Source: Anaerolineae bacterium (lineage in GTDB: Bacteria; Chloroflexota; Anaerolineae; UBA4142). From it: 64,000 bases of DNA. Positions 10,530 through 38,420 of the stretch are shown one piece after another. Location of the stretch: assembly GCA_034435055.1 (NCBI GenBank), contig DAOTXS010000065.1, forward strand, positions 1 to 64,000, written 5' to 3'. The notes under the pieces are model-generated. The model was not told where the DNA came from. It worked only from the letters and a program-made list of their open reading frames with translations, and did no database searches. The first letter of the stretch is position 1. Each line of letters opens with the position of its first letter. Both the position numbers and the translations under genes were made by a program.

Positions 10530-11563
10530 ATGAGCATCATCAAAGATTGTCCCAATCGTGCCCAGTGCATTATTGATCTGTTATCGCGACGCGTTGAAGA
10601 AAGAAAAGGCGTTGCGTGGACCGCGCTTCTTTCCGAGGGTCAAAATCTTTGCAATGCCAGAAATGAAACGAGAGCTTTACAAAGTTTCGAACAGTCGCTC
10701 AAACTAAGTGATGATCTTGCCGCCGTGAATGACAAGGATGCTAATCGACTCAAGGCAACGGCGCTGACGTGTATTGGGGCTCTGGGTTTGTGTAAAAACG
10801 AAATCGGTAGCGCTATCGTACGTTTTCGTCAAAGCGCTAGTATTTTTAATGCCGATGGTGATCATTATGGTGAAGCCGTTGCTCTCTTTGCCCTAGCGCA
10901 AGCCTATGAGGCGCGGAAAGAGTGGCGCGAAGCGTTCCGAAATTACGAATGGAGTCAGCGCGCGCTATCACACATTAGCAGTGATTCTGCAACAATCTTT
11001 TTGCGCCAATTGGTCGAAAAGCACCACGGTGAAGCCATTAAGGAATGGGAAAAGATGCCCGAAGTCGTTCAAGCACCGCAGGGAACACTCGGCTTTCTTC
11101 CGATTTTCAACCGGATTCCGGCCGGCGACCCGCGTTCTATTTCTGAACAACCAACTGATTATGTAGAAACAGACCGTTTAATTATTGCCGACAAGCCGTA
11201 TTATGTCGTAAATAAAGATTCATCCCGGCTTCGTCTTACTTTCTCAATCGACAAAGCGTACATCGCTTTTCGTGTTGCTGGCGATAGTATGAATAATGCG
11301 GGAATTGACGACGGTGATTACGTAATTTTGAGAACGAATTCGGTGACAGGCTCCGAGCCGGTGCCAGAAATCGGTGATATTGTTGCGATTGTATTTCCGG
11401 ATGATAATGTTGTCACGCTTAAGCGATATCGCCGGAAAGGCACGCAAGTGGTTTTTGAACCCGATAGCACTAATCCCAGTCACAAGCCCTTTCAGTTTGA
11501 CAAAGCTAGCTCCGGTTTCCCTGGTAAGATTGTTGGAATTCATATAGCAACATTAAAGCCGCT

Positions 11564-24508: not shown

Positions 24509-25345
24509 ATGCGGCAACGCGCCGGCATTTTGATCTTCATCGTGGCGATGTTGGTGTTGAGCGTGTGTACTTTGGCGGTGCGTCTCAGCCCTGTGCCGCA
24601 AATTCTTGCACCGATTTCTGCATTCGTTTCTACGCCAACGCCTACGCCACGTTTCACGGACAACGATGTCCGCGTCGTCGCCATCGTCGCAACGTACGAA
24701 GCGCAAGTTTTCCCAGAGCCGTTGAAATCGCAAGCGTACACCGCGATTGCGTGGACGATGCGCAATCGGATCGAGATCGGATTTGGCGGCGCGGTGCGTT
24801 ACACCGATGAACGCGTGACGAGTCGTTACGCCTCATATTCTGAACACAAAAATGATTTGCCCGACCCGCGCGCCATCGAAATCGCGCGGCAGGTGTTGAG
24901 CGCGGAAACGAATGTCGATGATCCGACGCGCGGCGCGCGCCACTTTGTCGATCATTCGTACTGGACGGGGACGAACGAGCAAACCGGCGCGTTGGTCAAG
25001 GTGCGCGGCAAATTCAGTGATGTCGATGTGCAACGCTTGATCGAGGATGGAAAATTTTTGATGACGATTGAATGGCAAACGCCAACCGACCATCCGCGCG
25101 GTCAACTTTTTTACGGATTGTATTTTTTCGACTACTGGCCTCCCGTTACACCCATCGTCACCGCCACGTTCACGCCAACGCGCCGCCCCACAGCAACGAT
25201 CACACGGACATCAACGCGCACGCTCACGTCCACCCGCACCTTGACTCCAACCCGAACCATAACGACTACGCCAACGCTGACGGCTACGCCGACAATCAGT
25301 GTAACGCCAACGATGCCGGCGACCGTTGAAATCAAGATTCAGTGA
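24509..25345 (+). CDS. Secreted/anchored cell-wall hydrolase, SleB/CwlJ-like (Hydrolase_2) domain, with a Thr-rich C-terminal tail
   Basis: N-terminal TM/signal; AIAWTMRNRIE...RYASY core resembles SleB-type hydrolases; C-terminal TPT/TRT low-complexity repeats. Moderate confidence. Confidence 0.5.
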   Translation: MRQRAGILIFIVAMLVLSVCTLAVRLSPVPQILAPISAFVSTPTPTPRFTDNDVRVVAIVATYEAQVFPEPLKSQAYTAIAWTMRNRIEIGFGGAVRYTDERVTSRYASYSEHKNDLPDPRAIEIARQVLSAETNVDDPTRGARHFVDHSYWTGTNEQTGALVKVRGKFSDVDVQRLIEDGKFLMTIEWQTPTDHPRGQLFYGLYFFDYWPPVTPIVTATFTPTRRPTATITRTSTRTLTSTRTLTPTRTITTTPTLTATPTISVTPTMPATVEIKIQ

Positions 25346-26274
25346 TGCCGCAACCGACGATTCAAGATGTTTTGCTCGATGCCGTCCGCGCGCTCGGCGC
25401 AACGATGGCGTATCACGACGCGCGACTGCAAGCAGAACTTTTACTTGCACACGCGCTTGAAACTTCGCGGTCGATGATGCTTGCGCGCTTGAATGAATCG
25501 ATTGCGCCCGATGTGGCGGCGCGATACGCGGCATCCGTCGCGCGACGCGCGCAACACGAACCGCTCGCGTACATCATCGGCCATCAAGAATTTTATGGAC
25601 TCGATTTCATCGTCGACCGGCGCGTGTTGATCCCGCGCCACGAAACGGAAACGCTCGTCCAACTCGCGCTGGAACGCGTGCAAAAAATTTTATCGCCGGT
25701 GATTGTCGATGTTGGCACCGGGTCGGGTGCGCTCGCGTTGACGCTGGCGCATCATTTGCCCCGCGCGCGCGTATTCGCGCTCGATCAATCGCGCGATGCG
25801 TTGGACGTGGCGCGACTGAACGCAAAACGCTTGAACGTGGAATCGCGCGTTGAATTTTTGCTATCCGATTTACTCGATGCCTTGGGTGATGCGTTTGATC
25901 TTTTGGTCGCCAATCTGCCGTACATTCCTTCGACGCGTTTTGATCAACTGCCGCGCGAAATCCGTGCATTTGAGCCGCGCGCCGCGCTCGACGGCGGCGA
26001 AGATGGTCTTGTCGTGATGCGGCGTCTGCTTGCGCAATTGGAATCGCACGCCAAGCGAAACGCGGTCGCGTTGTTGGAAATTTCGGAAGAGCAGGGCAAC
26101 GCTGCCATCGAAATGGCGCGGCGCATTTTGCCGGGTGCGGTGGTTACGTTGCACCCAGATTTGGAAAGATTAGATCGCGTGATGGAAATCAAAATGCTGA
26201 CGGAAGGCAGAGACTCGGTCTTCCGTCCCCGTCTTCGGTCGGGTTATGAGAACCCAACTTCTTCCCACAACTGA
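25342..26274 (+). CDS. prmC: Release factor glutamine methyltransferase PrmC (HemK)
   Basis: SAM motif VDVGTGSGALAL and the NPPY-type motif VANLPYI. Start overlaps the previous stop (GTGATG). Confidence 0.85.
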   Translation: MMPQPTIQDVLLDAVRALGATMAYHDARLQAELLLAHALETSRSMMLARLNESIAPDVAARYAASVARRAQHEPLAYIIGHQEFYGLDFIVDRRVLIPRHETETLVQLALERVQKILSPVIVDVGTGSGALALTLAHHLPRARVFALDQSRDALDVARLNAKRLNVESRVEFLLSDLLDALGDAFDLLVANLPYIPSTRFDQLPREIRAFEPRAALDGGEDGLVVMRRLLAQLESHAKRNAVALLEISEEQGNAAIEMARRILPGAVVTLHPDLERLDRVMEIKMLTEGRDSVFRPRLRSGYENPTSSHN

Positions 26275-26890
26275 TACTCAGGCGTTTGCCCACGCCGTCC
26301 GACTTTTGCGCGCCGGCAAAGTGATTGCATTTCCAACCGACACGGTTTACGGCATCGGCGCGGACGGTTTCAACGAACGTGCGATCGAGCAATTGTTCGT
26401 CGTCAAGGAACGCGAGCGCGGCAAGGCAATTCCGTATTTGTTGTCCGATACCAAAGATTTGGCGAAGGTGGCGCGTGAAATTCCGCGCGCCGCGCAGATG
26501 CTCGCGGAAAAATTTTTCCCGGGCGGACTGACGCTCGTTGTGCCGGCGTCGCCGCGCGTGCCAAAAATCCTGATTGCCGGCGGCGATACGATTGCGGTGC
26601 GCGTGCCCAATCATCCCACAACGCGTGCGCTGATCGATGCGTTGGGCGCGCCGCTCGCGGCGACGAGCGCAAATATCTCCGGCGGCGAAAATCCGGCGAA
26701 CGCGCGTGATGTGCTCAAACAACTCGACGGGCGCATTCCACTTATTCTCGATGGCGGTGCGACGCGCGGCAACATTCCGTCCACCGTTGTCGATGTCTCG
26801 ACCGATCCGCCGAAGGTGTTGCGGGTAGGAGTAATTACGGTCGAGGAAATTGAAAAAGTAGTTGGACAAGTTGCATCGTTTGATGGTTGA
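26246..26890 (+). CDS. tsaC: L-threonylcarbamoyladenylate synthase (YrdC/Sua5 domain), TsaC-type
   Basis: VIAFPTDTVYGIGAD YrdC signature; single-domain (214 aa); follows prfA and prmC as in many bacteria. Confidence 0.8.
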   Translation: MRTQLLPTTDTQAFAHAVRLLRAGKVIAFPTDTVYGIGADGFNERAIEQLFVVKERERGKAIPYLLSDTKDLAKVAREIPRAAQMLAEKFFPGGLTLVVPASPRVPKILIAGGDTIAVRVPNHPTTRALIDALGAPLAATSANISGGENPANARDVLKQLDGRIPLILDGGATRGNIPSTVVDVSTDPPKVLRVGVITVEEIEKVVGQVASFDG

Positions 26891-26942
26891 ATGGTTTCGT
26901 TGGCTATCAAATGTATCTATGCAACAGTGCAACTGACGAACT

Positions 26943-28133
26943 ATGCTAATCGGAATCGATGCCAGCCGCGCGACGAGCGCGACACCCACCGGCACAGAAA
27001 CTTATTCACGCGAACTGATTCGCGCGCTCCTCGCGCTTGATCGCAAGAATCAGTATCGATTGTATTTGCAAAGCGATGCGCCGCGCGATTTTTTTGCACC
27101 TTTGCAGTCAATGTCATTGCGAGCGGAGCGAAGCAATCTCTCAAACAACTTGAAAGATTGCTTCGTCGCAAATGACGCTCCTCGCAATGACAAGCGTGAT
27201 AATTTTGAATTGCGAATTCTAAAGCTCCCCCGCCTTTGGACTCACCTTCGCCTCTCGTTTGAAATGCTCACACGCGCGCCGGATGTCTTGTGGGTTCCGG
27301 CGCACGTTCTGCCGCCCATTCATCCGCGCCGCTCGATTGTAACGGTGCACGACCTGGGATATTTGCATTTCCCGCGCGCGCATCCGCCGCTACAACGACT
27401 GTATCACACGTGGTCAACGCGGTGGAACGCGCGCGCCGCCGCGCACATCTTCGCCGATTCCGAGGCGACGCGCGATGACTTGATGCAATTGTTGAACGTG
27501 CCGCTGGAAAAAATTACCATTGTGTATCCGGCGTACGATGCGGAATTGTACAAACCGGTGCGCGATATTGCGCTAATCGAAAACGTGCGCGCGAAATATC
27601 GCGTAGGCGAAGACTATATCCTCAGCATCGGCACAATTCATCCGCGCAAAAACTATGCGCGGTTGATTGAGGCATTTAGCAAATTGCGAATGGCAAATTG
27701 CAAATTGATGATCGTTGGCAAACGCGGTTGGTGGTACCAAGAGACGTTTGACATTGTGCCGCGTTTGGGCTTAGAGTCGAAAGTACAGTTTCTCGATTAT
27801 GTCCCGGTTTCCGATTTGCCTGCGCTCATCAGCGGCGCGCGCTTGCTCGCGTTTCCCAGTTTGCACGAAGGATTTGGTTTGCCGGTGTTGGAAGCGCACG
27901 CGTGCGGTACGCCGGTTGTTTGCTCGATGGTGTCGTCGTTGCCGGAAGCCGCCGGCGATGCCGCGCTCTTTTTCGACCCGCTCGACGTTGACGCGATTGC
28001 CGGCGCGATGAATCGTGTCTTGACGGACGAGGCGTTGCGCGCAAAATTGATCGAGCGGGGTTTTGATAATCTCAAACGCTTTGCGTGGCAAGCCAGCGCG
28101 CGTCAAGTGCTGGATGTGATTCAAAAACTATGA
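26943..28133 (+). CDS. GT4 family glycosyltransferase carrying an in-frame ~79 bp repeat-element insertion
   Basis: GT4 fold with EX7E-type C-terminal motifs (FPSLHEGFGLPVLEAHACGTPVV). Residues SMSLRAERSNLSNNLKDCFVANDAPRN are encoded by the MITE copy at 27113-27191. Confidence 0.8.
   Translation: MLIGIDASRATSATPTGTETYSRELIRALLALDRKNQYRLYLQSDAPRDFFAPLQSMSLRAERSNLSNNLKDCFVANDAPRNDKRDNFELRILKLPRLWTHLRLSFEMLTRAPDVLWVPAHVLPPIHPRRSIVTVHDLGYLHFPRAHPPLQRLYHTWSTRWNARAAAHIFADSEATRDDLMQLLNVPLEKITIVYPAYDAELYKPVRDIALIENVRAKYRVGEDYILSIGTIHPRKNYARLIEAFSKLRMANCKLMIVGKRGWWYQETFDIVPRLGLESKVQFLDYVPVSDLPALISGARLLAFPSLHEGFGLPVLEAHACGTPVVCSMVSSLPEAAGDAALFFDPLDVDAIAGAMNRVLTDEALRAKLIERGFDNLKRFAWQASARQVLDVIQKL
27113..27191. 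mobile_element. MITE-like nested-hairpin element, copy B, inserted in-frame within the GT4 gene
   Basis: 79 bp. Shares the 26-nt 5' arm and both 3' stem arms with copy A (15784-15865) and differs in the loop and the AAATGA spacer. 79 is not a multiple of 3, yet the frame continues, which implies indel compensation. Confidence 0.75.
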
Positions 28134-29656
28134 AACACTTTTTGTTGCCGGTCCTTTTGTTTCTACTATTTATATTGTCAAGCCCGGTGCGAGCGCAAGG
28201 CGTGAACATCGATCCGCGCGTTCTCGCCGATACCGCCGATGGCAAGGTGGGTCGATTTCTCGTCGTCATGAAATCGCAAACGCAAACGCGCGCGCTGGTT
28301 GCATTGACATCTGATCGCGCGGCGCGCGGTCGCTTGGTGTTCGACGCGCTCAGGCGAAACGCCGACGCGACGCAATCGAATGTGCGGGCGCAGTTAAATG
28401 CGCTGAACGTCAAGCATCGCGCGTACTGGATCGTGAATGTCATCGCGGTGGAAGGTAGGCGTGATGCCGTCGATGCGCTGGCGGCGCGCGCGGATGTTTT
28501 AGCGATTGAATCGGATCGTGAATTTCGCGTGCCGCTGGAACCGCCAGCGTCCGTGCCCGCCGCGCCGAATGCTGTCGAATGGAATGTGAGCAAGATCGGC
28601 GCGCCGCCGGTGTGGAACGCGGGTTTCACCGGGCAAGGCATCGTGTACGCGAATGCAGACACTGGCGTGCAGTGGGATCATCCCGCGTTGATTTCACATT
28701 ATCGCGGTTGGGATGGCGCGATGGCGGATCACAATTACAATTGGTGGGATGCGATTCATTCCGGCAACAATCCGTGTAATTCCAACAATCCTTCCATTCC
28801 CTTGCCGGCTTCCGGCTCGCCGGCGCCGTGCGATCCGTACGGGCATGGCACGCACACGTTAGGCATTGGCATCGGCGATGACGGCGCCGGCAATCAGGTG
28901 GGAGTTGCGCCCGGCGCAAAATGGATTTCCTGTCGCAATATGAATAGTTTGGGGTACGGCACGCCAAGCACGTATTTGGAATGTTTTCAATTCTTTCTCG
29001 CGCCCACGGATTTGAACGGCAACAATCCCGATCCGACGAAACGCCCGGATGTCGTTGGCAATTCGTACGGCTGTCCGCCAAGCGAAGGATGTGCCGCCAA
29101 TAGTTTGCTCGTGGCGATGGATAACTTGCGCGCCGCCGGTATTTTTATGGCAGTGTCAGCCGGCAATGCCGGTCCCAGTTGTTCATCGATCAATGATCCG
29201 CCGGCAATCTACGATTCTGCGATCACGATTGGCGCGACGGACGGCAACGATGCTATCGCCGTGTTCAGCAGTCGCGGTTCGGTAACCATTGATGGAAGTA
29301 ATCGACGCAAGCCGGATTTGGTTGCGCCGGGTGTTGGCGTTCGTTCGAGCTATCCGACGAATGTGTATGTCGGAATTTCCGGCACATCGATGGCGGCACC
29401 GCACGTTGCCGGCGCGGTGGCGTTGTTGTGGTCGGCGTTCCCGGCATTGCGCGGAAATGTTGATGCAACCGAAACGTTGCTGGAGCAAACAGCGGTGCGG
29501 TTGGTGACATCGCAAACGTGCGGCGGCGACGCGGCATTTCAATATCCGAACAACGTTTTTGGTTATGGACGCATCGATGTCTGGGCGGCGTACGATTATC
29601 AATCTCCGCCCCGCGGATTCAAATATCGTTTTCCAATGATCAGCCACAATCCGTAA
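28130..29656 (+). CDS. Secreted S8 family (subtilisin-like) serine peptidase with an N-terminal propeptide
   Basis: Signal peptide; catalytic motifs DTGV (Asp), HGTHT (His) and GTSMAAPHVAG (Ser). Start ATG at 28130 overlaps the GT4 stop (ATGA). Confidence 0.85.
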   Translation: MKHFLLPVLLFLLFILSSPVRAQGVNIDPRVLADTADGKVGRFLVVMKSQTQTRALVALTSDRAARGRLVFDALRRNADATQSNVRAQLNALNVKHRAYWIVNVIAVEGRRDAVDALAARADVLAIESDREFRVPLEPPASVPAAPNAVEWNVSKIGAPPVWNAGFTGQGIVYANADTGVQWDHPALISHYRGWDGAMADHNYNWWDAIHSGNNPCNSNNPSIPLPASGSPAPCDPYGHGTHTLGIGIGDDGAGNQVGVAPGAKWISCRNMNSLGYGTPSTYLECFQFFLAPTDLNGNNPDPTKRPDVVGNSYGCPPSEGCAANSLLVAMDNLRAAGIFMAVSAGNAGPSCSSINDPPAIYDSAITIGATDGNDAIAVFSSRGSVTIDGSNRRKPDLVAPGVGVRSSYPTNVYVGISGTSMAAPHVAGAVALLWSAFPALRGNVDATETLLEQTAVRLVTSQTCGGDAAFQYPNNVFGYGRIDVWAAYDYQSPPRGFKYRFPMISHNP

Positions 29657-29749
29657 AATTAACTTACCTTGCGTTAATCTCTGTCTCATCGATGCGCGTT
29701 ACGATTGGGCGGAGATTTTGTTTTGCAGTGTTGCCGTCAATCTTTTGAT

Positions 29750-29782
29750 CCGCGAATCACGCGAAATTCGCGGATTATTTTT
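29750..29782 (+). terminator. Rho-independent terminator after the S8 peptidase gene
   Basis: CCGCGAAT-CACGCGAA-ATTCGCGG stem followed by ATTATTTTT. Confidence 0.7.
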
Positions 29783-29818
29783 GAGGTTTGGCAAAGCAAA
29801 AAAATCGAAGGAGACTTT

Positions 29819-31090
29819 ATGTTCCGACCCAAACGCCTTCTCTTTGCGTCGATGATTCTTCTGTTACTCGCGGCATGCGTATCACCCGCGCCGACCCCGG
29901 CGCCGACCGCCCCGCCACCAACCAGCACGCCGAATCCGGAATTCGATTCCGCGCGCGCGTACGAGCACAATCGATTCTTGGCGGAAACGATTGGTACGCG
30001 CGTGGCAGGCACAGACGCCGCAACGCGCGCCGGCGATTACATCGCGCAAGAATTTATCAAGTACGGTTACGTCATCGAAAGGCAAGCGTTCACGTTCGAG
30101 GGCTGGGAAGATCGCGGCACGCAAGTGCAATTGATCGTGCCGGAAACGCGAACGCTCAACGCACGTCCGATTCAGTACAGTCCCGCCGGCAAAGTTGAAG
30201 CCGAAGTGGTGGCGGTAGGTGGTTTGGGCGAAGCCGGCGATTTTGCGCGTGTGAATGTCAAAGGCAAAATCGCGCTCGTGCAACGTGGGACGATTCCGTT
30301 TTCCGATAAAGCACTCAACGCGCAGAACGCCGGCGCGCTCGCGGCAATCGTTTACAACAACGCGCCGGATAATTTTCAAGGCATGTTGCGCGAACGGCCA
30401 TCGATTCCGGTTTTGGCGTTGAGCGGACGGGACGGACAAGCGATTATCGATTGGCTGGCGAAAGGTGCGGTGAAAATCAAAATCGAGAGCGATGCCGGAA
30501 TTATGCAACGTACCGGACGCAACATCATCGCGACGAAACGCGGCGCAAGTAACCGCGTCATCGTCTTGGGCGCGCATTACGATTCGGTTGAACTCGGCAA
30601 AGGCGCGAATGATAACGGGTCGGGAACTGCGGTCCTGCTCGAACTTGCGCGTGTGCTGGGACAAAAATCGCGCGCGGCGACGCTTGTCTTCGTCGCGTTC
30701 GATGCGGAGGAACTGGGACTGATCGGCTCGCGGCATTACGTTGCTGGATTGAACGACGACGCGCGCCAGAAAATCATCGCGATGTTGAACTTTGATATGC
30801 TCGGCGGCGGAAGCGGCGGGCTGGGGCTGGGCGGCGACGGCGACGTGGGACGCGCGGCGCGTGACGCGGCGGAAGCGTTGAAAATTCCCGCGCGCAATTT
30901 CCGCCTGGGGAGTAATGCAAGTAGTGACCACGCGCCATTTCAGAACGCCGGCATCGATACGGTTTTCTTCTCGCGCGATTACGATTTGCTTCACACGCCG
31001 CAAGACACATTCGATCAGATACGTGAGCAATTTCTGGCGGAAGCCGGACGCGTGGCGGTGAAGGCGGTAGAGGGGCTGGAGGTGTGGTGA
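29819..31090 (+). CDS. M28 family aminopeptidase lipoprotein with a PA domain
   Basis: LLLAAC lipobox; PA domain (GKIALVQRG); zinc ligands in HYDSVELGKGANDNGSG and FDAEELG. AAGGAG RBS at 29808. Confidence 0.8.
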   Translation: MFRPKRLLFASMILLLLAACVSPAPTPAPTAPPPTSTPNPEFDSARAYEHNRFLAETIGTRVAGTDAATRAGDYIAQEFIKYGYVIERQAFTFEGWEDRGTQVQLIVPETRTLNARPIQYSPAGKVEAEVVAVGGLGEAGDFARVNVKGKIALVQRGTIPFSDKALNAQNAGALAAIVYNNAPDNFQGMLRERPSIPVLALSGRDGQAIIDWLAKGAVKIKIESDAGIMQRTGRNIIATKRGASNRVIVLGAHYDSVELGKGANDNGSGTAVLLELARVLGQKSRAATLVFVAFDAEELGLIGSRHYVAGLNDDARQKIIAMLNFDMLGGGSGGLGLGGDGDVGRAARDAAEALKIPARNFRLGSNASSDHAPFQNAGIDTVFFSRDYDLLHTPQDTFDQIREQFLAEAGRVAVKAVEGLEVW

Positions 31091-31100
31091 ATGGGAAGTT

Positions 31101-31148
31101 GGGTGATTGGATGATTAGGTGATTGGGTGATAAGGTGATTGGGGATTT
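31101..31148. repeat. Octamer tandem repeat x6 (GGGTGATT GGATGATT AGGTGATT GGGTGATA AGGTGATT GGGGATTT)
   Basis: Read directly; intergenic, immediately upstream of the STAND promoter. Confidence 0.75.
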
Positions 31149-31177
31149 TTGATTTGCGATTGACTGCGTGATATAAT
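31149..31177 (+). promoter_or_regulatory. Candidate promoter TTGATT-N17-TATAAT for the STAND NTPase gene
   Basis: TTGATT at 31149-31154 and TATAAT at 31172-31177 with a 17-nt spacer. Confidence 0.45.
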
Positions 31178-31220
31178 CAGGTTGAGCAAGCGTGCGTGAT
31201 TCTGCGTCGTGGAGGCAAAG

Positions 31221-33311
31221 ATGCCCGACCTGACTCAAACCTTCTTTGATATTCCACTTTGGTTGTGGTCGATTGGCGTTGTCGCAATCATTTTCATTGC
31301 GATTGTGATTGCGCGCAAAATGGAATTTGAGGGCGTCAATATCACCGCGACGCCGCCGTTTTTCCAATTCCGTTTCAAGCGTAAATCCGCGCGTGAGCAG
31401 ACCCGTCAGGTTTCTGCAAACCCGATGGGTTTTTCTGCCTCCGGCGAGCGAAGCGTCGTCGTGGCGGGCGATAATCGCGGGCAGATTTTTACTGGTGATA
31501 TTCATTTGCCGCCCGCATCACCGCCGCCAGAACCTAAACCACACACGCCTGCACAACAAGTCGAAATCTATATTCAGCGTGGCATTGAAGACAAAGTGCG
31601 CGCCCGGCTTTTGCAAACCGGCGTTGCCGCCATCGTTGGTATTCACGCGCCGGGCGGCGTGGGCAAAACCGAACTGGCGAAATATGTCTCCCGCAGTTTG
31701 CGCGACCAATTTGGCGAGCCGGTTTGGGTGAATTTAGGCGATAAAACGCCGGAACAAATCATCGGCGATTTTGCGCTTGCCGTTGGCGCACAACTTTCCC
31801 CTAATGCAAATTACGCCCAGCGCCGCGACGAACTCCACGCGTATTTACAGCGACACAAATTCCTCATCATTCTTGACGACGCGCGCGAACCCAACCGCGC
31901 CGCGCTCGCCGATTTTCTTCCACCATCTCCCCCGTGCGCCGCAATGGTAACCAGCCGGATTCACGAACTGACGCATGCGATTGCGGTGAATGCGCGTTTT
32001 GATTTGGGCAATATGACTGACCCGCAGGCGCGTGAACTGCTGACCGCCGCACTTGGCGCGGAACGTGTGAACGCAGAAAGTGACGCGGTTCAACGGCTCA
32101 TTGCGCGCGTCAAAGCCAATCCGCTGGCTTTGGATATTGCCGCGCGGCGAATCTATGCATACCGCGAGCGCAAAAATCCGGTGGCTTTTTTCTTGGAAAA
32201 ATTGGAACAACGCTTGGACGAACTACATGCCGGCGACGATCCACGTTTGAATTGGGAAGCGGTGATGGATTTGAGTTACAATGATTTGACCCCCGCCGAC
32301 CAAAAGCGTTTCCGTGCGCTCGCCGTTTTTTCGGCTCAAGGATTTACCGTACCCGCCGCGCAATTAGTTTGGAACGATAACGCTGATGCGGTGCGCCAAG
32401 CCATTGCGCGCCTGCACAATTTCTCTTTGCTCAAAATGCTCGATACGCTGGACGAACGCTATCGTTTGCACGATTTGTTGGACGAGTACGCGATGAAAAA
32501 ATTGCGCGCGCACGGTGAAGAAAATGAAGCGAATGACCGTCACGCGCAATATCTCGCCCAATTGTTTGACGAACATTACACAGATGATCCCAGCACTGCG
32601 CCGGAAATCGTACCCGAATTGGAAAACTTGCGCGCGGCGGTTAGATGGGCGCGCACAACGCAGAATGGTAAACGTTTGGCAGAACTGGCAACCAAATCGC
32701 GTAACTGGATGGTCGTCCTAAATTGGTATACCGAGTGGTCCACGTGGTTAACTGATGCGTTGCGTATAGGCAAAGACTATGACCGGCAATTAGAAGCGAA
32801 CGTGCGAAAAGCGATGGGCGACGTGCAACAGTTTCGCAAAGAAATGGACGCCGCGCTGGAAAGTTACGCGCACGCGTTGGAGTTGTTCCGCGCCGTCGGC
32901 TCAAAATTGGGCGAAGCGAACGTGCGAAAAGCGATGGGCGACGTGCAACAGTTTCGCAAAGAAATGGACGCCGCGCTGGAAAGTTACGCGCACGCGTTGG
33001 AGTTGTTCCGCGCCGTCGGCGACCGCTTGGGCGAAGCGAACGTGCTGGCGGCACAATGTCGATTACTTGTCCAAGCCGGTGAATTGGCGCAAGCCGAAAA
33101 GAATCTTGTCCAAGTCATCGCGATACGCCGCGAGATTGGAGATTTATACAGCGAAGGTGCTGATTATGGCAATTTTGCGCTTGTGTTACTGAATGTCGGC
33201 GAAAAAGCAAAAGCGAAATCCTACGTTCTCAAAGCGAAACAAGTCTTTGAGCAAATCGGTGAGCCATACTATTTGCAATGGGTTGAACGTGTGATTGCCG
33301 CGTGTGATTAG
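31221..33311 (+). CDS. Membrane-anchored STAND NTPase: N-terminal TM helix, NB-ARC-type P-loop NTPase, C-terminal TPR-like repeats
   Basis: One TM helix (LWLWSIGVVAIIFIAIVIA); Walker A GIHAPGGVGKTELA; Walker B FLIILDDA; 40-aa helical repeats at the C-terminus. Start ATG at 31221 after GGAGG. The tabulated ORF begins at the GTG at 31209. Confidence 0.7.
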   Translation: MPDLTQTFFDIPLWLWSIGVVAIIFIAIVIARKMEFEGVNITATPPFFQFRFKRKSAREQTRQVSANPMGFSASGERSVVVAGDNRGQIFTGDIHLPPASPPPEPKPHTPAQQVEIYIQRGIEDKVRARLLQTGVAAIVGIHAPGGVGKTELAKYVSRSLRDQFGEPVWVNLGDKTPEQIIGDFALAVGAQLSPNANYAQRRDELHAYLQRHKFLIILDDAREPNRAALADFLPPSPPCAAMVTSRIHELTHAIAVNARFDLGNMTDPQARELLTAALGAERVNAESDAVQRLIARVKANPLALDIAARRIYAYRERKNPVAFFLEKLEQRLDELHAGDDPRLNWEAVMDLSYNDLTPADQKRFRALAVFSAQGFTVPAAQLVWNDNADAVRQAIARLHNFSLLKMLDTLDERYRLHDLLDEYAMKKLRAHGEENEANDRHAQYLAQLFDEHYTDDPSTAPEIVPELENLRAAVRWARTTQNGKRLAELATKSRNWMVVLNWYTEWSTWLTDALRIGKDYDRQLEANVRKAMGDVQQFRKEMDAALESYAHALELFRAVGSKLGEANVRKAMGDVQQFRKEMDAALESYAHALELFRAVGDRLGEANVLAAQCRLLVQAGELAQAEKNLVQVIAIRREIGDLYSEGADYGNFALVLLNVGEKAKAKSYVLKAKQVFEQIGEPYYLQWVERVIAACD
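32793..33032 (+). repeat. Tandem duplication of a 120 bp unit (40 aa TPR-like repeat), perfect over ~108 bp
   Basis: 32793-32900 and 32913-33020 are identical nucleotide for nucleotide, encoding EANVRKAMGDVQQFRKEMDAALESYAHALELFRAVG twice. Confidence 0.85.
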
Positions 33312-33318
33312 CGCGTTT

Positions 33319-33356
33319 AGACCTGACAGATTCCGAAACCTGTCAGGTCTTTGCTT
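33319..33356 (+). terminator. Perfect 11-bp inverted repeat AGACCTGACAG-N10-CTGTCAGGTCT followed by TTGCTTTGCC (weak terminator after the STAND gene)
   Basis: Read directly. The T-tract is poor, so function is uncertain. Confidence 0.4.
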
Positions 33357-33562
33357 TGCCGCCGATTGGAAGCCGATTATATCCGCAACCTGCTTGAGCG
33401 GGTTTGTACCTGTGTTAGCCCCCAAATTTGATTCGGGGGGCGATGTGGAACTCTTTGCCCTAGTGCATCGTCTAATAGGCGAATAGAAATTCTGCAGCGG
33501 TCTTTGGTCGGAGCTTGTCCTGAGCGTAGACGAAGGATCGCACCTGCCCAAGGAGTTTCCAA

Positions 33563-36232
33563 ATGAAAACCAACTTGACGCCATCGGTTAAAACCGACGG
33601 CTATCACCCCCAACCAAACCCGCGTCGCGGGTTTCGAGAATTGCTACCCGTTCGTTTTTCCTCTGGACACCTTTGGCGCAACGACTGGCGTCGCATTTTC
33701 ATCGTTGCTTTCGCGGTTTTCGTATCTTTCGCGGCATTCGCGTTCCAAACGCCTTTGCCCGCCGCCGCGGACGGACTTGTCATCGTCCAATGTCCGCCCA
33801 TCGTCATTCCGCTTGGCACGCTGGAGCCCATCCGCCCGCCCATTGAAATTCAACCGGCAATTCCGCCCATCACCCCGCGTCCCATCGTGCCGCCGTTGCC
33901 GCCGGTTCGCCGCGATTGCTCCACGTACCTCGCCGTCAAGAATCACAACGTCAACGTAACGATCGATAACCAAATCGCGCGCACCCGCGTCGATCAGACG
34001 TTTATCAACGACAGCACCTACGCGCTCGAAGGCACGTACATCTTTCCGCTCCCAGACGACGCCGCGATCAGTGAGTTTGCAATGTGGGTCGATGGCAAAA
34101 AGTTGGAAGGGCAGGTGCTGGACAAGAATCAAGCGCGCCGCATTTACGAAGACATCGTCCGCAGTCAACGCGACCCGGCTCTGCTGGAGTACGTTGGACG
34201 CAACGCGTTTCAAGCGCGCATCTTTCCAATTCCACCCAAAACCGAAAAGCGCGTCGAGATCGAATACTCGCAGGTCTTGAAATTGGAACAGGGTCTCGTT
34301 CGCTACGTCTATCCGCTCAACACCGAAAAATTTTCGCCCAAGCCGCTCGCCAACGTCTCGGTGAACGTGTCGATCAAATCGAACGCCGCACTCAAAGCGA
34401 TCTACTCGCCGTCGCACAACGTCGGCGTCGCGCGGAGCGGCGATTACGCGGCGAAGGTTGGCTACGAAGACAAGAACGTGCGCCCCGACCGCGACTTTGT
34501 GCTGTACTATTCAGTTACCCAAGACGAAATTGGGTTGAATCTGGTGAGTTACAAACAAGCGGGCGAAGATGGCTTTTTTGTGATGCTCGTCGCGCCACAA
34601 GTCGAAATCGATAAATCGCGCGTGATCGATAAAGATGTGATTCTCGTCCTCGATGTTTCCGGCTCGATGCAAGGATCGAAAATCGCGCAGGCGAAGAACG
34701 CGCTGTACTATGTGCTCGACCGCTTGAATCCGAACGATCGCTTCAACATCATCACGTTCAGCACCGGGACTCGCGCGTACGCCACGGCGTTGCGCCCGGC
34801 ATCGATGCGCGACGACGGACGCAACTTTGTCTCGCGCATCGTGGCGGAAGGATCGACCGACATCAATCGCGCATTGCTCGAAGCGATGAATAGCGTGGAC
34901 CCTTCGACTTCGCTCAGGGCAGGCGTCGAACGCCCGACCATCGTCATCTTTTTGACCGATGGTTTGCCGACAACCGGCGAAACGAATACGCAAAAAATAA
35001 TTGCGAATGTTACGAACGCCGCGCCGAAAAACGTGCGCCTCTTTGCCTTTGGCGTCGGCGATGATGTGAACACGATTCTGCTCGACACGCTCGCCGAAAA
35101 AATTCGTGGCGCGAGCGGCTACGTCCGCCCCACCGAAAAAATCGATGAGATTGTGTCCGCGTTTTACGCCAAAGTTTCCACGCCAGTTCTGTCCGACATT
35201 TCGATTGATTGGGGCGGCATTGCGGTGAACGATGTGTATCCGTATCCTCTGCCGGATTTGTTTGCCGGGACGCAACTGGTTGTTACCGGGCGTTATCGCA
35301 CCGGCGGCGCGGCGACAATCACGTTGAAAGGAACGATCAACGGTGTGCCGCAAACGTTTCGCTATTCCGATGTATCGTTCCGAAATTCTGGCGGCGATGA
35401 TTCGATTCCGCGTTTGTGGGCGCAACGCAAGATTGGTTACTTGATGAATGAGATTCGTCTGCGCGGCGAGAATCGCGAGATCATCAACGAAATCGTTGCG
35501 CTTGCAATTCGGTACGGCATCGTAACGCCGTACACCTCGTTCCTCGTCGATGAACGGTCGGATGTGCTGACGCAAACCGGGCGCGAGAACGCGGCGAAGC
35601 AAGCGCAGGCGACTGCCGCGCCGCCGCTGCCGCAATCTGGCGCCGCGGCAGTTGATCGCAGCCAGTTCGAAAGTCAGATGCGGAGTTCCGCCGCCGCCGC
35701 GCCCGCGCCGACCAAAGCGCCCGCGCCCGTCGCGCCCGGGCAATCCGCGCCGTCGGATGCGTACCGCGACGCGCTCGCGTTGCAATATGTTGGCGACAAG
35801 ACGTTTATTTCGCGCAGTGGTGTGTGGATCGATACGCAATTTGATCCGGCAAAAATGAAGACGACGCAAATCGAATTTGGCAGCGACGCGTACTTTGCGC
35901 TCGTCGCCAATCATCCGCTTGCCGGCAAGTACGTTGCGCTGGGTTCGCGCGTGATCTTTCTGCTCAACGGCGTTGCGTACGAAATTACCGACGGCGGCAC
36001 CGGCGCAACTTCGGCGAGCATCATTCCAACGGCGATCCCGGGTTCGCCGACGCCGGTAGCGCGCGCGTTGCCGGGAACGACTTTGTCGTCTTCGCGCGCG
36101 AATGTGCCGGGTTCGTCGTCATCGCAATCGACGGGCGGGAATGTTGCGTTGCCGGTTTGCGGCGGAAGCGTTTTGAGTTTCGCGATGTTGTTTGGTTTGA
36201 TCGGCTGGTCGATGTTGCGACAAAAATCGTAG
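33563..36232 (+). CDS. VIT domain + von Willebrand factor type A (vWA) domain protein with a C-terminal membrane anchor
   Basis: N-terminal signal/TM; VIT-like region (NVTIDNQIARTRVDQTF...); vWA MIDAS motif DVSGSM with DG/TDG downstream; Pro/Ala-rich linker; C-terminal hydrophobic segment. AAGGAG RBS. Confidence 0.75.
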   Translation: MKTNLTPSVKTDGYHPQPNPRRGFRELLPVRFSSGHLWRNDWRRIFIVAFAVFVSFAAFAFQTPLPAAADGLVIVQCPPIVIPLGTLEPIRPPIEIQPAIPPITPRPIVPPLPPVRRDCSTYLAVKNHNVNVTIDNQIARTRVDQTFINDSTYALEGTYIFPLPDDAAISEFAMWVDGKKLEGQVLDKNQARRIYEDIVRSQRDPALLEYVGRNAFQARIFPIPPKTEKRVEIEYSQVLKLEQGLVRYVYPLNTEKFSPKPLANVSVNVSIKSNAALKAIYSPSHNVGVARSGDYAAKVGYEDKNVRPDRDFVLYYSVTQDEIGLNLVSYKQAGEDGFFVMLVAPQVEIDKSRVIDKDVILVLDVSGSMQGSKIAQAKNALYYVLDRLNPNDRFNIITFSTGTRAYATALRPASMRDDGRNFVSRIVAEGSTDINRALLEAMNSVDPSTSLRAGVERPTIVIFLTDGLPTTGETNTQKIIANVTNAAPKNVRLFAFGVGDDVNTILLDTLAEKIRGASGYVRPTEKIDEIVSAFYAKVSTPVLSDISIDWGGIAVNDVYPYPLPDLFAGTQLVVTGRYRTGGAATITLKGTINGVPQTFRYSDVSFRNSGGDDSIPRLWAQRKIGYLMNEIRLRGENREIINEIVALAIRYGIVTPYTSFLVDERSDVLTQTGRENAAKQAQATAAPPLPQSGAAAVDRSQFESQMRSSAAAAPAPTKAPAPVAPGQSAPSDAYRDALALQYVGDKTFISRSGVWIDTQFDPAKMKTTQIEFGSDAYFALVANHPLAGKYVALGSRVIFLLNGVAYEITDGGTGATSASIIPTAIPGSPTPVARALPGTTLSSSRANVPGSSSSQSTGGNVALPVCGGSVLSFAMLFGLIGWSMLRQKS

Positions 36233-36296
36233 GGGCACGCCTCGTGCGTGCCCACATGTCGGGGGCGACCACGAGGGTCGCCCCTACGTTTTTTGC
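36229..36296 (+). terminator. Double palindromic repeat (GTAGGGGCACGC-CTCGTG-CGTGCCC / GGGGCGACC-ACGAGG-GTCGCCCCTAC, family copy 4) followed by GTTTTTTG, acting as a terminator
   Basis: Overlaps the TAG stop of the vWA gene; a T-tract follows directly. Confidence 0.7.
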
Positions 36297-36323
36297 CAAT
36301 CCGCACATCGTCGGTTATAATCG
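36295..36323 (+). promoter_or_regulatory. Candidate promoter TTGCCA-N17-TATAAT for the dsbA-like gene
   Basis: TTGCCA at 36295-36300 and TATAAT at 36318-36323; AAGGAG RBS before the ATG at 36348. Confidence 0.5.
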
Positions 36324-36347
36324 CTCCATCTCAACAAGGAGCGCAAA

Positions 36348-37085
36348 ATGGAAACAAACGAAACGAACGCCGCGCCAGCGTCGATTGAGACGGAGGTCGC
36401 GGCGATTCGCGCAAAACGTCGGCGCAAGTTTAATCCGTGGTGGATCATCGCGCCGGTGTTGTTGGTGGTGGGCGTTGCGATTGGTTATTTTGGTCGTCCA
36501 CTTTTGAATCCCGGTCAAACCGCGTCCGGCAAACCCGATGTGATCGATTTGCTAATTTCGCAGACCAAGCATTTCAAAGGCAACGCGAATGCGCCGATCA
36601 CGATGCTTGAATTCAGCGATTTTCAATGTCCGTTCTGCGCGCGATTTGCGACTGGCGTGGAGCGTCAGATCGAAGAAGCTTTTGTCAAGACCGGCATCGT
36701 GCGATTTGGCTATCAGCATTTTGCGTTTCTTGGCGAGGAATCCGGCTGGGCGGCGGAAGCGAGCGAGTGTGCCGGCGAGCAAAACAAGTTTTGGGAGTAT
36801 CACGATTTGCTGTTCGCGCGGCACGGTGGAGAAAATCTAGGCGCGTTTGCTAAAGATAAATTGAAGGGCTTTGCTATCGAATTGAAATTAGATGTGACAA
36901 AGTTCAACACCTGCCTTGATTCCGGCAAGTTTGCCGCGGAGATTCAATCACAGGGCGAGTTCCTGGGATCGTTGGGTATTCAAAGCACGCCGACGTTCTT
37001 GATCAATCGCCAAGTGGTTCCCGGTGCGTTACCCTTCGAGGAATTCAAAAAAGTGATCGAAGCGGAACAGGGCAAGCAGAAATAA
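36348..37085 (+). CDS. DsbA-family thiol:disulfide oxidoreductase (membrane-anchored)
   Basis: N-terminal TM helix and the CPFC active site in FSDFQCPFCARF. Confidence 0.75.
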   Translation: METNETNAAPASIETEVAAIRAKRRRKFNPWWIIAPVLLVVGVAIGYFGRPLLNPGQTASGKPDVIDLLISQTKHFKGNANAPITMLEFSDFQCPFCARFATGVERQIEEAFVKTGIVRFGYQHFAFLGEESGWAAEASECAGEQNKFWEYHDLLFARHGGENLGAFAKDKLKGFAIELKLDVTKFNTCLDSGKFAAEIQSQGEFLGSLGIQSTPTFLINRQVVPGALPFEEFKKVIEAEQGKQK

Positions 37086-37115
37086 GGTAGGAGCGCGGTC
37101 ATCGCGCCCCTTTGT

Positions 37116-38420
37116 TTACCGAATCACTTTGTGAATCAACAACGGCAATGTCGGTTCACTGTCGCTAAATTCGTACGCCGCGCGCAAACGATCTTCTGCC
37201 GCATCACAACTCCGATGATCGCTGGCGTGAATTGTGGCGAGTGGTTCACCGCGTTTGATGCGCGCGCCGACTTTGTGGTGGAACACAACCCCAACGCAAT
37301 GATCGATAGGCGCACCTTTTTTCGCGCGACCACCCCCCAGATCGACGACGATCAAGCCGACCTCTTCCGCGTCGATGCCGGCGATAACGCCGTTGCGCGG
37401 CGCGACGACCTCGCGGATCACTTCGGCACGCGGGAGAAGCGAATAATCATCGATGACGCGGCGCGCGCCGCCTTGCCCGGCAATCCAATCGCCGAATTTT
37501 TTCAACGCGCGTCCATCGTCGATTGCTGCTTGGAGTTTTTGGCGCGCATCAAGTTCGTCAGTCGCCGCGTTGGCGAGCAACAACAACAGTTCGCCGACGG
37601 CAAGACAATGCTCGGTGAAATCTTCGGGACCTTTGCCGCGCAACGTTTCAATCGCCTCGATCACTTCAAGCGCGTTGCCCACCGCGTTGCCGAGCGGTTG
37701 ATTCATATCGCTGATGATCGCACCGACCTTGCGATCACACCCGCGTCCGATTTTGACCATCAACTCGGCGAGCGCGAGCGCGTCGGCTTCGGTCTTCATA
37801 AACGCGCCGCGCCCCACTTTGACATCGAGCGCGATGATGTGTGCGCCGGCGGCGATCTTTTTGCTCATGATCGAACTGGCGATGAGCGGCAAACAACCCA
37901 CCGTCGCGGTTACGTCGCGCAACGCGTACAACTTGCCGTCCGCTGGCGCGAGGTCGTGCGTCTGGCCGTTGACGACGATGCCGTGTGTTTTCAACTGCGC
38001 GATGAATTCTTCGGTACTCAAATCGCATCGATAGCCGGGAATCGATTCGAGTTTATCGAGCGTGCCGCCGGAAAAACCCAAGCCGCGCCCGGACATTTTG
38101 CCAACCGGTAATCCCAGCGATGCCACAAGCGGCGCGACGACGAGCGTCGTCTTATCGCCGACGCCGCCGCTGGAATGTTTATCGAGCACTTGCGGCGCGA
38201 CGGACGAGAGGTCCATCACCGTGCCGGAATGTGCCATTGCCATTGTCAGCGCAGTGGTTTCAGTTTCGTTCATTCCGCGCAAGTAAACTGCCATTGCCCA
38301 CGCGGCGGCTTGATAATCCGGAATCTCGCCGCTGGTCAAACCTTGCACGAAAAATTCTATTTCGTCGTGTGAGAGTTCGTACCCGTCGCGCTTCTTTGCG
38401 ATGATATCGACCGCTCGCAT
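37116..38420 (-). CDS. Thymidine / pyrimidine-nucleoside phosphorylase
   Basis: Full-length match to the glycosyl transferase family 3 signature (DKHSSGGVGDKTTLVVAPL; SGRGLGFSGGTLDKLE). Confidence 0.85.
   Translation of the reverse strand: MRAVDIIAKKRDGYELSHDEIEFFVQGLTSGEIPDYQAAAWAMAVYLRGMNETETTALTMAMAHSGTVMDLSSVAPQVLDKHSSGGVGDKTTLVVAPLVASLGLPVGKMSGRGLGFSGGTLDKLESIPGYRCDLSTEEFIAQLKTHGIVVNGQTHDLAPADGKLYALRDVTATVGCLPLIASSIMSKKIAAGAHIIALDVKVGRGAFMKTEADALALAELMVKIGRGCDRKVGAIISDMNQPLGNAVGNALEVIEAIETLRGKGPEDFTEHCLAVGELLLLLANAATDELDARQKLQAAIDDGRALKKFGDWIAGQGGARRVIDDYSLLPRAEVIREVVAPRNGVIAGIDAEEVGLIVVDLGGGRAKKGAPIDHCVGVVFHHKVGARIKRGEPLATIHASDHRSCDAAEDRLRAAYEFSDSEPTLPLLIHKVIR

Follow-up and report, generated by a model that had tools for sequence, protein, structure and literature searches.

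What does a signaling NTPase do when little more than a membrane anchor occupies its effector position, and does it act together with the secreted proteins encoded beside it? This question is raised by a gene in the 64,000-nucleotide stretch of contig DAOTXS010000065.1 (GenBank assembly GCA_034435055.1, positions 1 to 64,000) that was analyzed here and is called the window. The host is a filamentous Anaerolineae-type Chloroflexi bacterium, and NLR-like STAND proteins are abundant in multicellular bacteria. The gene encodes a 696-amino acid (aa), membrane-tethered NB-ARC/TPR STAND protein (31221..33311, + strand), which the original prediction, made from the DNA letters, had proposed to be a conflict protein linked to neighboring peptidase and VIT-vWA genes. 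We found the conflict role to be plausible, given the modular N termini of the family, its homogenized TPR units, and a swapped central cassette, whereas the association with the neighbors is unsupported. The reading that we favor is that of a stand-alone NLR-like conflict sensor that is encoded by a single gene and probably acts by perturbing the membrane with its clustered transmembrane (TM) module, and we give it a probability of roughly 0.45.

The longest open reading frame (ORF) at this position spans 31209-33311 on the + strand, and its likely start is the ATG at 31221, which lies 3' of a GGAGG Shine-Dalgarno sequence (31211-31215). The coding sequence was assigned from the ORF, the Shine-Dalgarno sequence, and Pfam, which placed NB-ARC over aa 124-309 (E=1e-15) and TPR_12 in four stretches (E=3.8e-16). 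All of the NB-ARC switch motifs are present: Walker A GGVGKT at 145, Walker B LIILDD at 215, the RNBS-B/sensor-1 TxR motif TSR at 244, the GLPL-like GxP motif NPLAL of HD1 at 300, and the MHD-type LHD at 416, which is invariant in 32 homologues. The AlphaFold2 model of the 696-aa protein, built from an alignment of 32 homologues (mean predicted local distance difference test score [pLDDT] 86, predicted TM-score 0.75), starts with a helix (aa 13-33), continues with a beta-hairpin of low confidence (aa 39-52) and a disordered stretch (aa 53-114), and then forms a well-defined NBD-HD1-WHD assembly (pLDDT >90 over the NOD) and helical repeats at aa 460-695. The NB-ARC NOD module (NBD-HD1-WHD) was delimited to aa 116-450 (31566..32570, +) by Pfam, a profile search of the PDB, AlphaFold2, Foldseek, and motifs, and the TPR sensor-like domain to aa 460-696 (32598..33308, +) by Pfam and AlphaFold2. 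Within the latter, a 120-bp (40-aa) TPR unit is tandemly repeated in 2.1 copies with 95% matches (32793..33045, +). The family profile matched the solved structure of AfsR (2e-58) as well as those of NRC2, Apaf-1, and ZAR1, and Foldseek with the AlphaFold2 model returned the archaeal STAND-TPR protein PH0952, Apaf-1, CED-4, and plant resistosomes, with the window NOD superposing on ZAR1, Sr35, and NRC at ~4 Å root-mean-square deviation over ~350 residues. The window protein is a STAND NTPase of the AP-ATPase/NB-ARC clade with NLR-like architecture. The domain order foreseen in the original prediction, a TM helix followed by an NB-ARC P-loop and 40-aa repeats, agrees with hydropathy, Pfam, motifs, the AlphaFold2 model, and the 120-bp repeat. 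No paralogue of the protein is encoded elsewhere in the window, where only a weak TPR match was seen at 10602-10946.

The N-terminal region holds only three elements at the effector position, namely a TM helix, a conserved motif of 20 aa, and a linker predicted to be disordered. The helix at aa 13-33 is hydrophobic, with a Kyte-Doolittle maximum of 2.76, and the same span is helical in the AlphaFold2 model; together with the flanking charges, this identifies a single predicted TM helix (31257..31319, +). The net charge is -2 on the N-terminal side and +3 in the 30 residues on the C-terminal side, which by the positive-inside rule predicts an N-out/C-in topology. Approximately 12 residues would thus be extracellular, with all of the ATPase and TPR in the cytoplasm. 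Directly after the helix, the juxtamembrane motif EFEGVNxTATPPFxxFRFKRK (aa 35-55; 31323..31385, +) was recognized by conservation and modeled by AlphaFold2 as a beta-hairpin with low confidence. The motif is nearly invariant, with G38, N40, P45, P46, F47, and R51 constant in 10 orthologues. The linker (aa 56-115; 31386..31565, +) is Gly/Asn- and Pro-rich and disordered in the AlphaFold2 model (pLDDT <50). No Pfam domain was detected in aa 1-115, in agreement with the earlier description of a membrane-anchor N terminus without an enzymatic effector. This type of N-terminal module is rare, with nine representatives among 1.84 billion clustered proteins. Three short metagenomic proteins of 119-145 aa (P0122, P0123, and P0124) carry the TM helix and the EFEGVNxTATPPF module followed by unrelated sequence with no NB-ARC domain; these may be truncated gene calls, or the module may occur alone or on other partners.

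Homology searches recovered 1,419 proteins at E≤1e-10, of which ~87 are close (34-57% identity). The close homologues that carry an organism name all come from Chloroflexota or Anaerolineae metagenome-assembled genomes (MAGs), and below them rank actinobacterial AfsR/SARP and XRE-NB-ARC-TPR proteins. At least one TM segment is predicted in 50 of the 73 close homologues with a complete N terminus, and the other 23 are TM-less. The TM-bearing N termini belong to at least three unrelated sequence types, that is, the single helix with motif found in the window protein and two different two-helix types. Among the TM-less relatives, P0027 has a TIR domain (TIR_2, 1.5e-17) at a position equivalent to that of the TM module in the window protein. 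By the context of Walker A, the family splits into two NOD lineages, "HAPGGxGKT" and "GMGGxGKT", and either lineage pairs with all of the N-terminal classes scored (the window type, termed type-a 1-TM, other 1-TM, 2-TM, and no TM). This pairing indicates module shuffling, and the N terminus acts as an exchangeable module. The C-terminal repeats show a different kind of plasticity. Within a protein, the 40-aa TPR units share 90-97% identity, compared with ~70% between proteins, and they number 1-10 copies. P0004 and P0126, which fall in one 90% cluster, differ in length by exactly 40 aa, or one TPR unit. Judged from these identities, the units are homogenized within each protein across the family, with variable copy number.

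Divergence at the locus itself centers on the STAND gene. Proteins encoded beside the STAND gene at the orthologous loci L001-L006 share 61-73% identity with those of the window, whereas the STAND proteins share only 39-42%. A closer comparison is offered by L089 (JGI 3300043178 Ga0484860_0001539), which shares 96% DNA identity with the window along 10.3 kb starting at 32793 and whose flanking proteins nearly match those of the window (VIT-vWA 97%, DsbA-like 98.8%, PyNP [pyrimidine-nucleoside phosphorylase] 98%, and Bac_transf 99.8%). The two STAND proteins are ~50% identical overall, with 97% over aa 1-64, ~80% over aa 525-696, and ~35-40% (about 37%) over aa 65-524. The DNA identity drops from 0.92 to 0.44 at ~31436 and recovers at ~32791, where the TPR repeat begins. 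Between these sharp breakpoints lies a central cassette (31436..32791, +; 39-64% DNA identity to L089) that comprises the linker, the whole NOD, and the first sensor helices. The window NOD (330 residues) is 35-40% identical to the NODs of its positional orthologues, which take ranks 50 to 71 of 74 homologues and share 71% identity among themselves; it is closest to that of the TIR-fused P0027, at 59-61%. A divergent NOD between near-identical flanks implies that the central cassette was exchanged at the locus, whereas the TM module and the C-terminal TPR were kept. The locus is thus a divergence hotspot at which a cassette has apparently been exchanged between near-identical genomes, and so sharp a difference in the core is typical of immune or self/non-self sensors. 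The donor was not among the sampled sequences, in which the 59-61% match was the best for the NOD, and the exchange may either be an old one that has been maintained as a polymorphism or derive from an unsampled lineage.

The genes around the STAND gene are those named in the original prediction. A GT4 glycosyltransferase gene (26943-28133) overlaps with the gene of an S8 subtilase with a signal peptide (ATG at 28130) through an ATGA stop/start, and an M28+PA peptidase gene with a lipobox-like start follows (29705-31090). Downstream lies a VIT-vWA gene (33563-36232) whose product has an N-terminal TM segment and a C-terminal anchor made of CGG, a TM segment, and a basic tail. The M28+PA frame is listed from the TTG at 29705; an internal Met followed by FRPKRLLFASMILLLLAAC resembles a lipoprotein signal, so the true start is probably ~38 codons downstream. 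In the VIT-vWA protein, a 44-aa N-terminal cytoplasmic tail precedes the TM segment, and the C terminus (ALPVCGG, a hydrophobic helix, and RQKS) is like a GlyGly-CTERM or MYXO-CTERM sorting signal; its best NCBIfam match is TIGR03788 (marine sortase target) at 2e-96, which is below the cutoff. Overall, the immediate neighbors of the STAND gene all encode secreted or envelope proteins.

Four other lineages, namely L001, L002-L005, L006 (one contig with L013), and L089, encode proteins with the same N-terminal module in a matching context, with the shared order (M28)-STAND-VIT-vWA-DsbA-like-PyNP(-)-Bac_transf(-)-GT4(-). However, housekeeping genes are kept alongside, including those of pyrimidine-nucleoside phosphorylase (72-73% identical), prmC (68%), and sugar transferases, implying that the association is synteny of the whole block. 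Extra genes lie between GT4 and S8 and between S8 and M28 in L002, the upstream genes differ in L006, and neither L006 nor L089 has an intact M28 gene upstream of the STAND gene. At 79 further family loci, taken from GTDB species representatives (35 of them cover the NOD), no relative of VIT-vWA, M28, S8, or GT4 was found within 10 kb. Viewed from the other side, a STAND gene lies upstream in 2 of 56 metagenomic VIT-vWA loci (37-74% identity), both from the L001 lineage, and the other 54 show no NB-ARC gene, including loci with 4-8 kb of upstream sequence. PADLOC applied to ten neighbors returned the generic subtilase model only, no MoxR-type ATPase was found within ~10 kb and no VMAP or iSTAND component was seen, and no other defense genes were found near the STAND gene. 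These neighborhood tests show that the adjacency of peptidase and vWA genes is gene order inherited within one lineage and not a conserved functional module. The STAND gene forms neither an operon nor a conserved module with the genes of the secreted peptidases and of the VIT-vWA protein, and the link proposed to GT4-S8, M28, and VIT-vWA is not supported. The case is a caution, since a peptidase/vWA adjacency that resembled a conflict system proved to be inherited synteny alone.

No partner is conserved across the family; outside the syntenic lineage of the window, only a convergent ABC-exporter pair recurs, and it is not an operon partner. The pair (~610-640 aa for each product) stands beside another STAND subfamily in L008, L009, L010, L012, L017, L022, L082, and L087, in several Anaerolineaceae MAGs; this subfamily mostly belongs to the HAPGG NOD lineage, and some of its members are TM-less. 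Farther upstream in the window, between prfA and prmC, a 278-aa ORF (24509-25345) has no counterpart among the Pfam, NCBIfam, and PADLOC families. Its product carries a TM segment at the N terminus, and its C terminus is repetitive and rich in Thr and Pro (TRTLTSTRTLTPTRTITTTPT); a gene of the same length precedes prmC in L004.

Signals on both sides of the STAND gene suggest how it is transcribed. A consensus scan detected a sigma-70-type promoter-like site (TTGATT-17-TATAAT with an extended -10 TG; 31149..31177, +) that is conserved in L089. The original prediction had assigned this promoter to the gene; the site does exist, but promoter-like sites in the region are no more numerous than chance allows (7 found versus 6.0 expected). 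An 8-bp tandem array of TTGGGTGA in ~6 copies (31099..31147), seen in a repeat scan and in the comparison with L089, abuts the -35 hexamer upstream. The array is length-polymorphic, being 35 bp shorter in the near-identical L089, and could modulate promoter activity. On the other side, folding revealed a terminator-like hairpin with an 11-bp perfect stem followed by UUUGCUUUG (33319..33350, +), which starts 8 nt past the stop codon. Its folding energy is -21.4 kcal/mol (z = -4.4), and none of 200 shuffles was equally stable; the consensus terminator scan passed over it because the loop exceeds 8 nt. The promoter-like site and the terminator-like hairpin together suggest that the STAND gene is its own, monocistronic transcription unit. 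Rfam showed no structured RNA in 26000-38000. Right after the VIT-vWA gene, the strongest intrinsic-terminator-like site of the region (36261-36285; a 10-bp stem with 8 GC pairs and a T-run) is followed by an 11/12 promoter match ahead of the DsbA-like gene (36293-36321), which suggests that the VIT-vWA gene is a transcription unit of its own as well.

The intergenic region upstream of the STAND gene also differs in content between the window and L089. Positions 1-960 of L089 hold a two-gene DUF4160 and DUF2442 cassette, which may be toxin-antitoxin-like, upstream of the STAND gene. The STAND promoter is duplicated in front of this inserted cassette: L089 178-240, which corresponds to window 31140-31230, is a second copy of the promoter, ribosome-binding site, and start codon. 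A 90-bp remnant of the M28 3' end comes after the cassette. Taken together, the cassette, the duplicated promoter, and the remnant make the intergenic region look like an insertion hotspot.

In the general STAND/NLR scheme, ligand binding is followed by nucleotide exchange and oligomerization, and the N-terminal modules are thereby brought together. Applied to the window protein, the TPR array would bind a trigger in the cytoplasm, for which an invader (phage) protein or another non-self protein is the likeliest candidate, and the ligand on the repeat domain would relieve autoinhibition. Exchange of ADP for ATP would lead to NOD oligomerization by analogy with Apaf-1, plant resistosomes, and Avs proteins, and the oligomer would gather the N-terminal TM and juxtamembrane modules in the membrane. 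Once clustered, these modules might perturb the membrane by depolarization or leak, and the infected filament cell would be arrested or killed. In this scheme, the TM module fills the place that TIR or other effectors would have in relatives. Membrane perturbation is favored as the output because the TM helix and the conserved motif are the only N-terminal module and lie at the TIR position of the closest NOD relative; the shuffled N termini, including TIR, the homogenized TPR units, and the swapped cassette are what make an NLR-like conflict role plausible. Several published observations fit this scheme. TPR/WD repeats with high internal conservation are found in fungal and bacterial NLRs, and NLR-like proteins are typical of multicellular bacteria (10.1101/2020.01.06.895854). 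TM modules are known on bacterial NACHT proteins and on Avs7-sensor proteins (10.1101/2022.07.19.500537; PMC13581612), and Cam1 is a minimal TM-helix effector that depolarizes the membrane in CRISPR defense (PMC10808066).

Other observations weigh against the conflict-sensor reading. The function of the family has been inferred for every member, and PADLOC applied to the STAND protein returned only a generic TPR model (6.3e-9) and a non-significant DolB match. The gene occupies a conserved chromosomal position among housekeeping and envelope genes with no recognizable defense island, and no mobile-element genes adjoin it in the window. The TM helix is hydrophobic throughout, like a stable anchor and not like a pore-lining amphipathic helix, and the juxtamembrane hairpin is modeled with low confidence. 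Moreover, 23 of 73 relatives are TM-less, implying that membrane attachment is not essential to the family. The swapped part is the NOD and not the presumed sensor, unlike what occurs in a classic sensor-driven arms race. A bolder extension of the reading takes the swap as its center: the gene would encode a membrane-tethered NLR of filamentous Anaerolineae with hyper-divergent alleles, and whole NOD cassettes would be traded between paralogues or lineages while a locus-specific TM module and TPR cap are kept. It would be a locus like fungal het/NLR or plant R genes, under balancing or diversifying selection and used for phage-triggered cell suicide or for telling kin from non-self within a filament, and the killing would come from the clustering of a minimal membrane effector with one helix. 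We regard this extension as rather unlikely.

The stable position of the gene can also be read as a sign of a non-immune role. The protein might be a membrane-localized signaling or scaffolding STAND, a housekeeping ATP-dependent switch like MalT, GutR, or AfsR without a DNA-binding domain, which organizes or regulates an envelope process at the inner membrane face, possibly tied to the VIT-vWA protein, the DsbA-like oxidoreductase, the secreted peptidases, or the polysaccharide transferases. The position is the same in five lineages, always followed by VIT-vWA, DsbA-like, PyNP, and Bac_transf, and the secreted or envelope nature of all immediate neighbors, the lack of a recognized effector domain and of a PADLOC defense match, and the regulator AfsR as best curated sequence relative all fit such a role, as does the interspersion of defense and non-defense STAND clades (PMC13581612). 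However, the gene appears to be a separate transcription unit, its product has no output domain, the neighbors are missing at the 79 other family loci, 54 of 56 VIT-vWA loci are without an NB-ARC gene, and the upstream synteny is broken in L006 and L089. A core identity of ~37% between 96%-identical genomes and an N terminus swapped with TIR are both unexpected for a housekeeping regulator, and we consider the non-immune role doubtful, though it is a serious contender. The same gene order underlies the idea of a multi-gene conflict system in which the STAND protein would be the NTPase component alongside GT4-S8, M28, and VIT-vWA. The genes are co-oriented, their adjacency is conserved in L001-L005, the glycosyltransferase has a weak partial GT4-conflict Pfam match (2.5e-8, far below its generic GT1 matches), and published ternary systems do combine vWA, peptidase, and STAND proteins (PMC7159879). 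This idea is largely refuted and keeps next to no weight: the conservation is that of a whole block with its housekeeping genes, the combination is absent from the other family loci and from 54 of 56 VIT-vWA loci, genes are inserted in L002 and the intact upstream M28 is missing from L006 and L089, MoxR, VMAP, and iSTAND components are lacking, the terminator-like hairpin separates the STAND and VIT-vWA genes, and the peptidases and VIT-vWA are predicted to be exported whereas the NOD is predicted to be cytoplasmic.

Two further alternatives concern the N-terminal module and the cassette. In an adaptor-type NLR, the TM helix would only localize the protein, and the oligomer would recruit an unlinked effector via the juxtamembrane motif or the Gly/Asn-rich linker, like BASS/Bell or EAD adaptors. 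EFEGVNxTATPPFxxFRFKRK is more constrained than a plain anchor requires, and G/N/V/I-rich stretches such as SGTNVTIGNGNTV occur in the linker and in TM-less relatives and resemble the composition given for BASS motifs (10.1101/2020.01.06.895854). The three short proteins of 119-145 aa, which share the N-terminal module before unrelated sequence, point in the same direction, but truncation of the gene calls may account for them. Beside the window gene and the TM-less relatives in loci L087 and L088, no gene for a Bell-like or motif-sharing partner is found (motif identity itself was not tested), and the adaptor model seems improbable to us, though it too is a serious contender. The central cassette might instead be an assembly chimera, with the contig of the MAG jumping between paralogues at conserved sequence. 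The 3' breakpoint indeed falls at the start of a repeated, family-wide conserved TPR unit, the contig is metagenome-assembled, and the window protein has been seen once. Nevertheless, the ORF is uninterrupted with all NB-ARC motifs intact, the 5' breakpoint lies in sequence that the other paralogue types do not share and thus provides no homology for a jump, and another type-a protein, P0034, also has a non-GMGG NOD. A chimera is therefore decidedly unlikely, and the stand-alone conflict sensor remains the reading that we prefer.

We know of no direct test of function for the NB-ARC/TPR-type NLR-like STAND proteins, and the family described here is a minimal case, with ~700 aa and a TM helix as the sole candidate output. 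The window gene and its L089 counterpart form a natural allele pair in a 96%-identical background, in which the role of the membrane anchor and the effect of a NOD swap on specificity or autoactivity are testable. With a swapped NOD cassette in a near-identical background and a minimal membrane module, the output mechanism becomes experimentally approachable.

Bacterial NLR-like NB-ARC/TPR proteins are said to have been described by Koonin and Aravind in 2002 and by Urbach and Ausubel in 2017. The window protein shares with the NLR-like proteins of multicellular bacteria a NOD with TPR, a filamentous host, internally conserved TPR units, and variable N termini that include TIR (Dyrka et al. 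2020, 10.1101/2020.01.06.895854). Its own N terminus differs in being a single TM anchor with a short conserved motif and, unlike theirs, contains no Bell five-helix domain, no enzyme, and no amyloid motif with an adjacent partner, and a partner gene was not found. In a Bell/BASS two-component pair, a neighboring and usually collinear gene encodes a Bell-domain protein with an amyloid motif of ~25 aa in common with the NLR N terminus. Such a pair was considered and rejected: no partner gene was found in the window or by the TM-less relatives in L087 and L088, and the N terminus of the AlphaFold2 model lacks the five-helix bundle of a Bell-like domain and shows a helix, a hairpin, and a disordered stretch instead.

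Among solved and curated proteins, the closest NOD relative is AfsR, a SARP-NB-ARC-TPR protein of Streptomyces (PDB 8k60/8jke; profile E 2e-58), in which TPR likewise follows the NOD. The window protein differs in being membrane-anchored and in lacking the SARP/BTAD DNA-binding domain. An AfsR-like housekeeping assignment, which the original prediction had named as a possible counterargument, did not emerge. The NCBIfam AfsR model NF053617 matched aa 135-450 (1e-43), that is, the NOD only, with 149 bits versus a cutoff of 1430, and Pfam detected neither Trans_reg_C nor BTAD of the SARP module (an OmpR-type wHTH followed by BTAD), so an identity as an AfsR/SARP regulator was rejected.

The ternary systems consist of a MoxR AAA+ ATPase, a cytoplasmic vWA protein with effector domains, and VMAP or iSTAND as third component (PMC7159879). 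A vWA-MoxR/iSTAND system was rejected for this locus (no MoxR within ~10 kb), whose vWA protein is of the VIT-vWA type, is predicted to be exported, and bears what looks like a sorting signal. The Avs families and TM-bearing NACHT proteins are alike in their three-part build, in which a STAND NTPase stands between an N-terminal module and a TPR-like sensor, and TM segments are among their modules (PMC13581612; 10.1101/2022.07.19.500537). However, they belong to another NTPase clade, whereas the window protein is of the NB-ARC/AP-ATPase type; Avs sensors typically have 400 aa or more, compared with ~240 aa for the window TPR, and the window gene lies at a syntenic position and not in a defense island. 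The comparison with antiviral STAND families that the original prediction had called for gave no PADLOC Avs match, and membership in a recognized Avs or other known defense family was rejected.

More distant parallels concern the output. The CC-NLR resistosomes (ZAR1, Sr35, and NRC) have a homologous NOD and share the idea, transferred here by analogy, of an oligomer that would unite N-terminal helices at the membrane. In these resistosomes and in the fungal HeLo/HET-S-type outputs, an amphipathic helix is released from a soluble helical bundle, whereas the helix of the window protein is fully hydrophobic and predicted to be constitutively inserted; the repeats are TPR and not leucine-rich repeats. 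Cam1 and the CARF-TM effectors of type III CRISPR systems also place a cytoplasmic ligand-sensing domain on a minimal N-terminal TM segment, and their output is membrane depolarization by the oligomer (PMC10808066). Cam1 differs in that its sensor is a CARF domain activated by cyclic oligoadenylate, and it serves here as a mechanistic precedent only. TM-bearing STANDs and NLR-like proteins of multicellular bacteria have thus already been described, and the window protein is a new, uncharacterized member.

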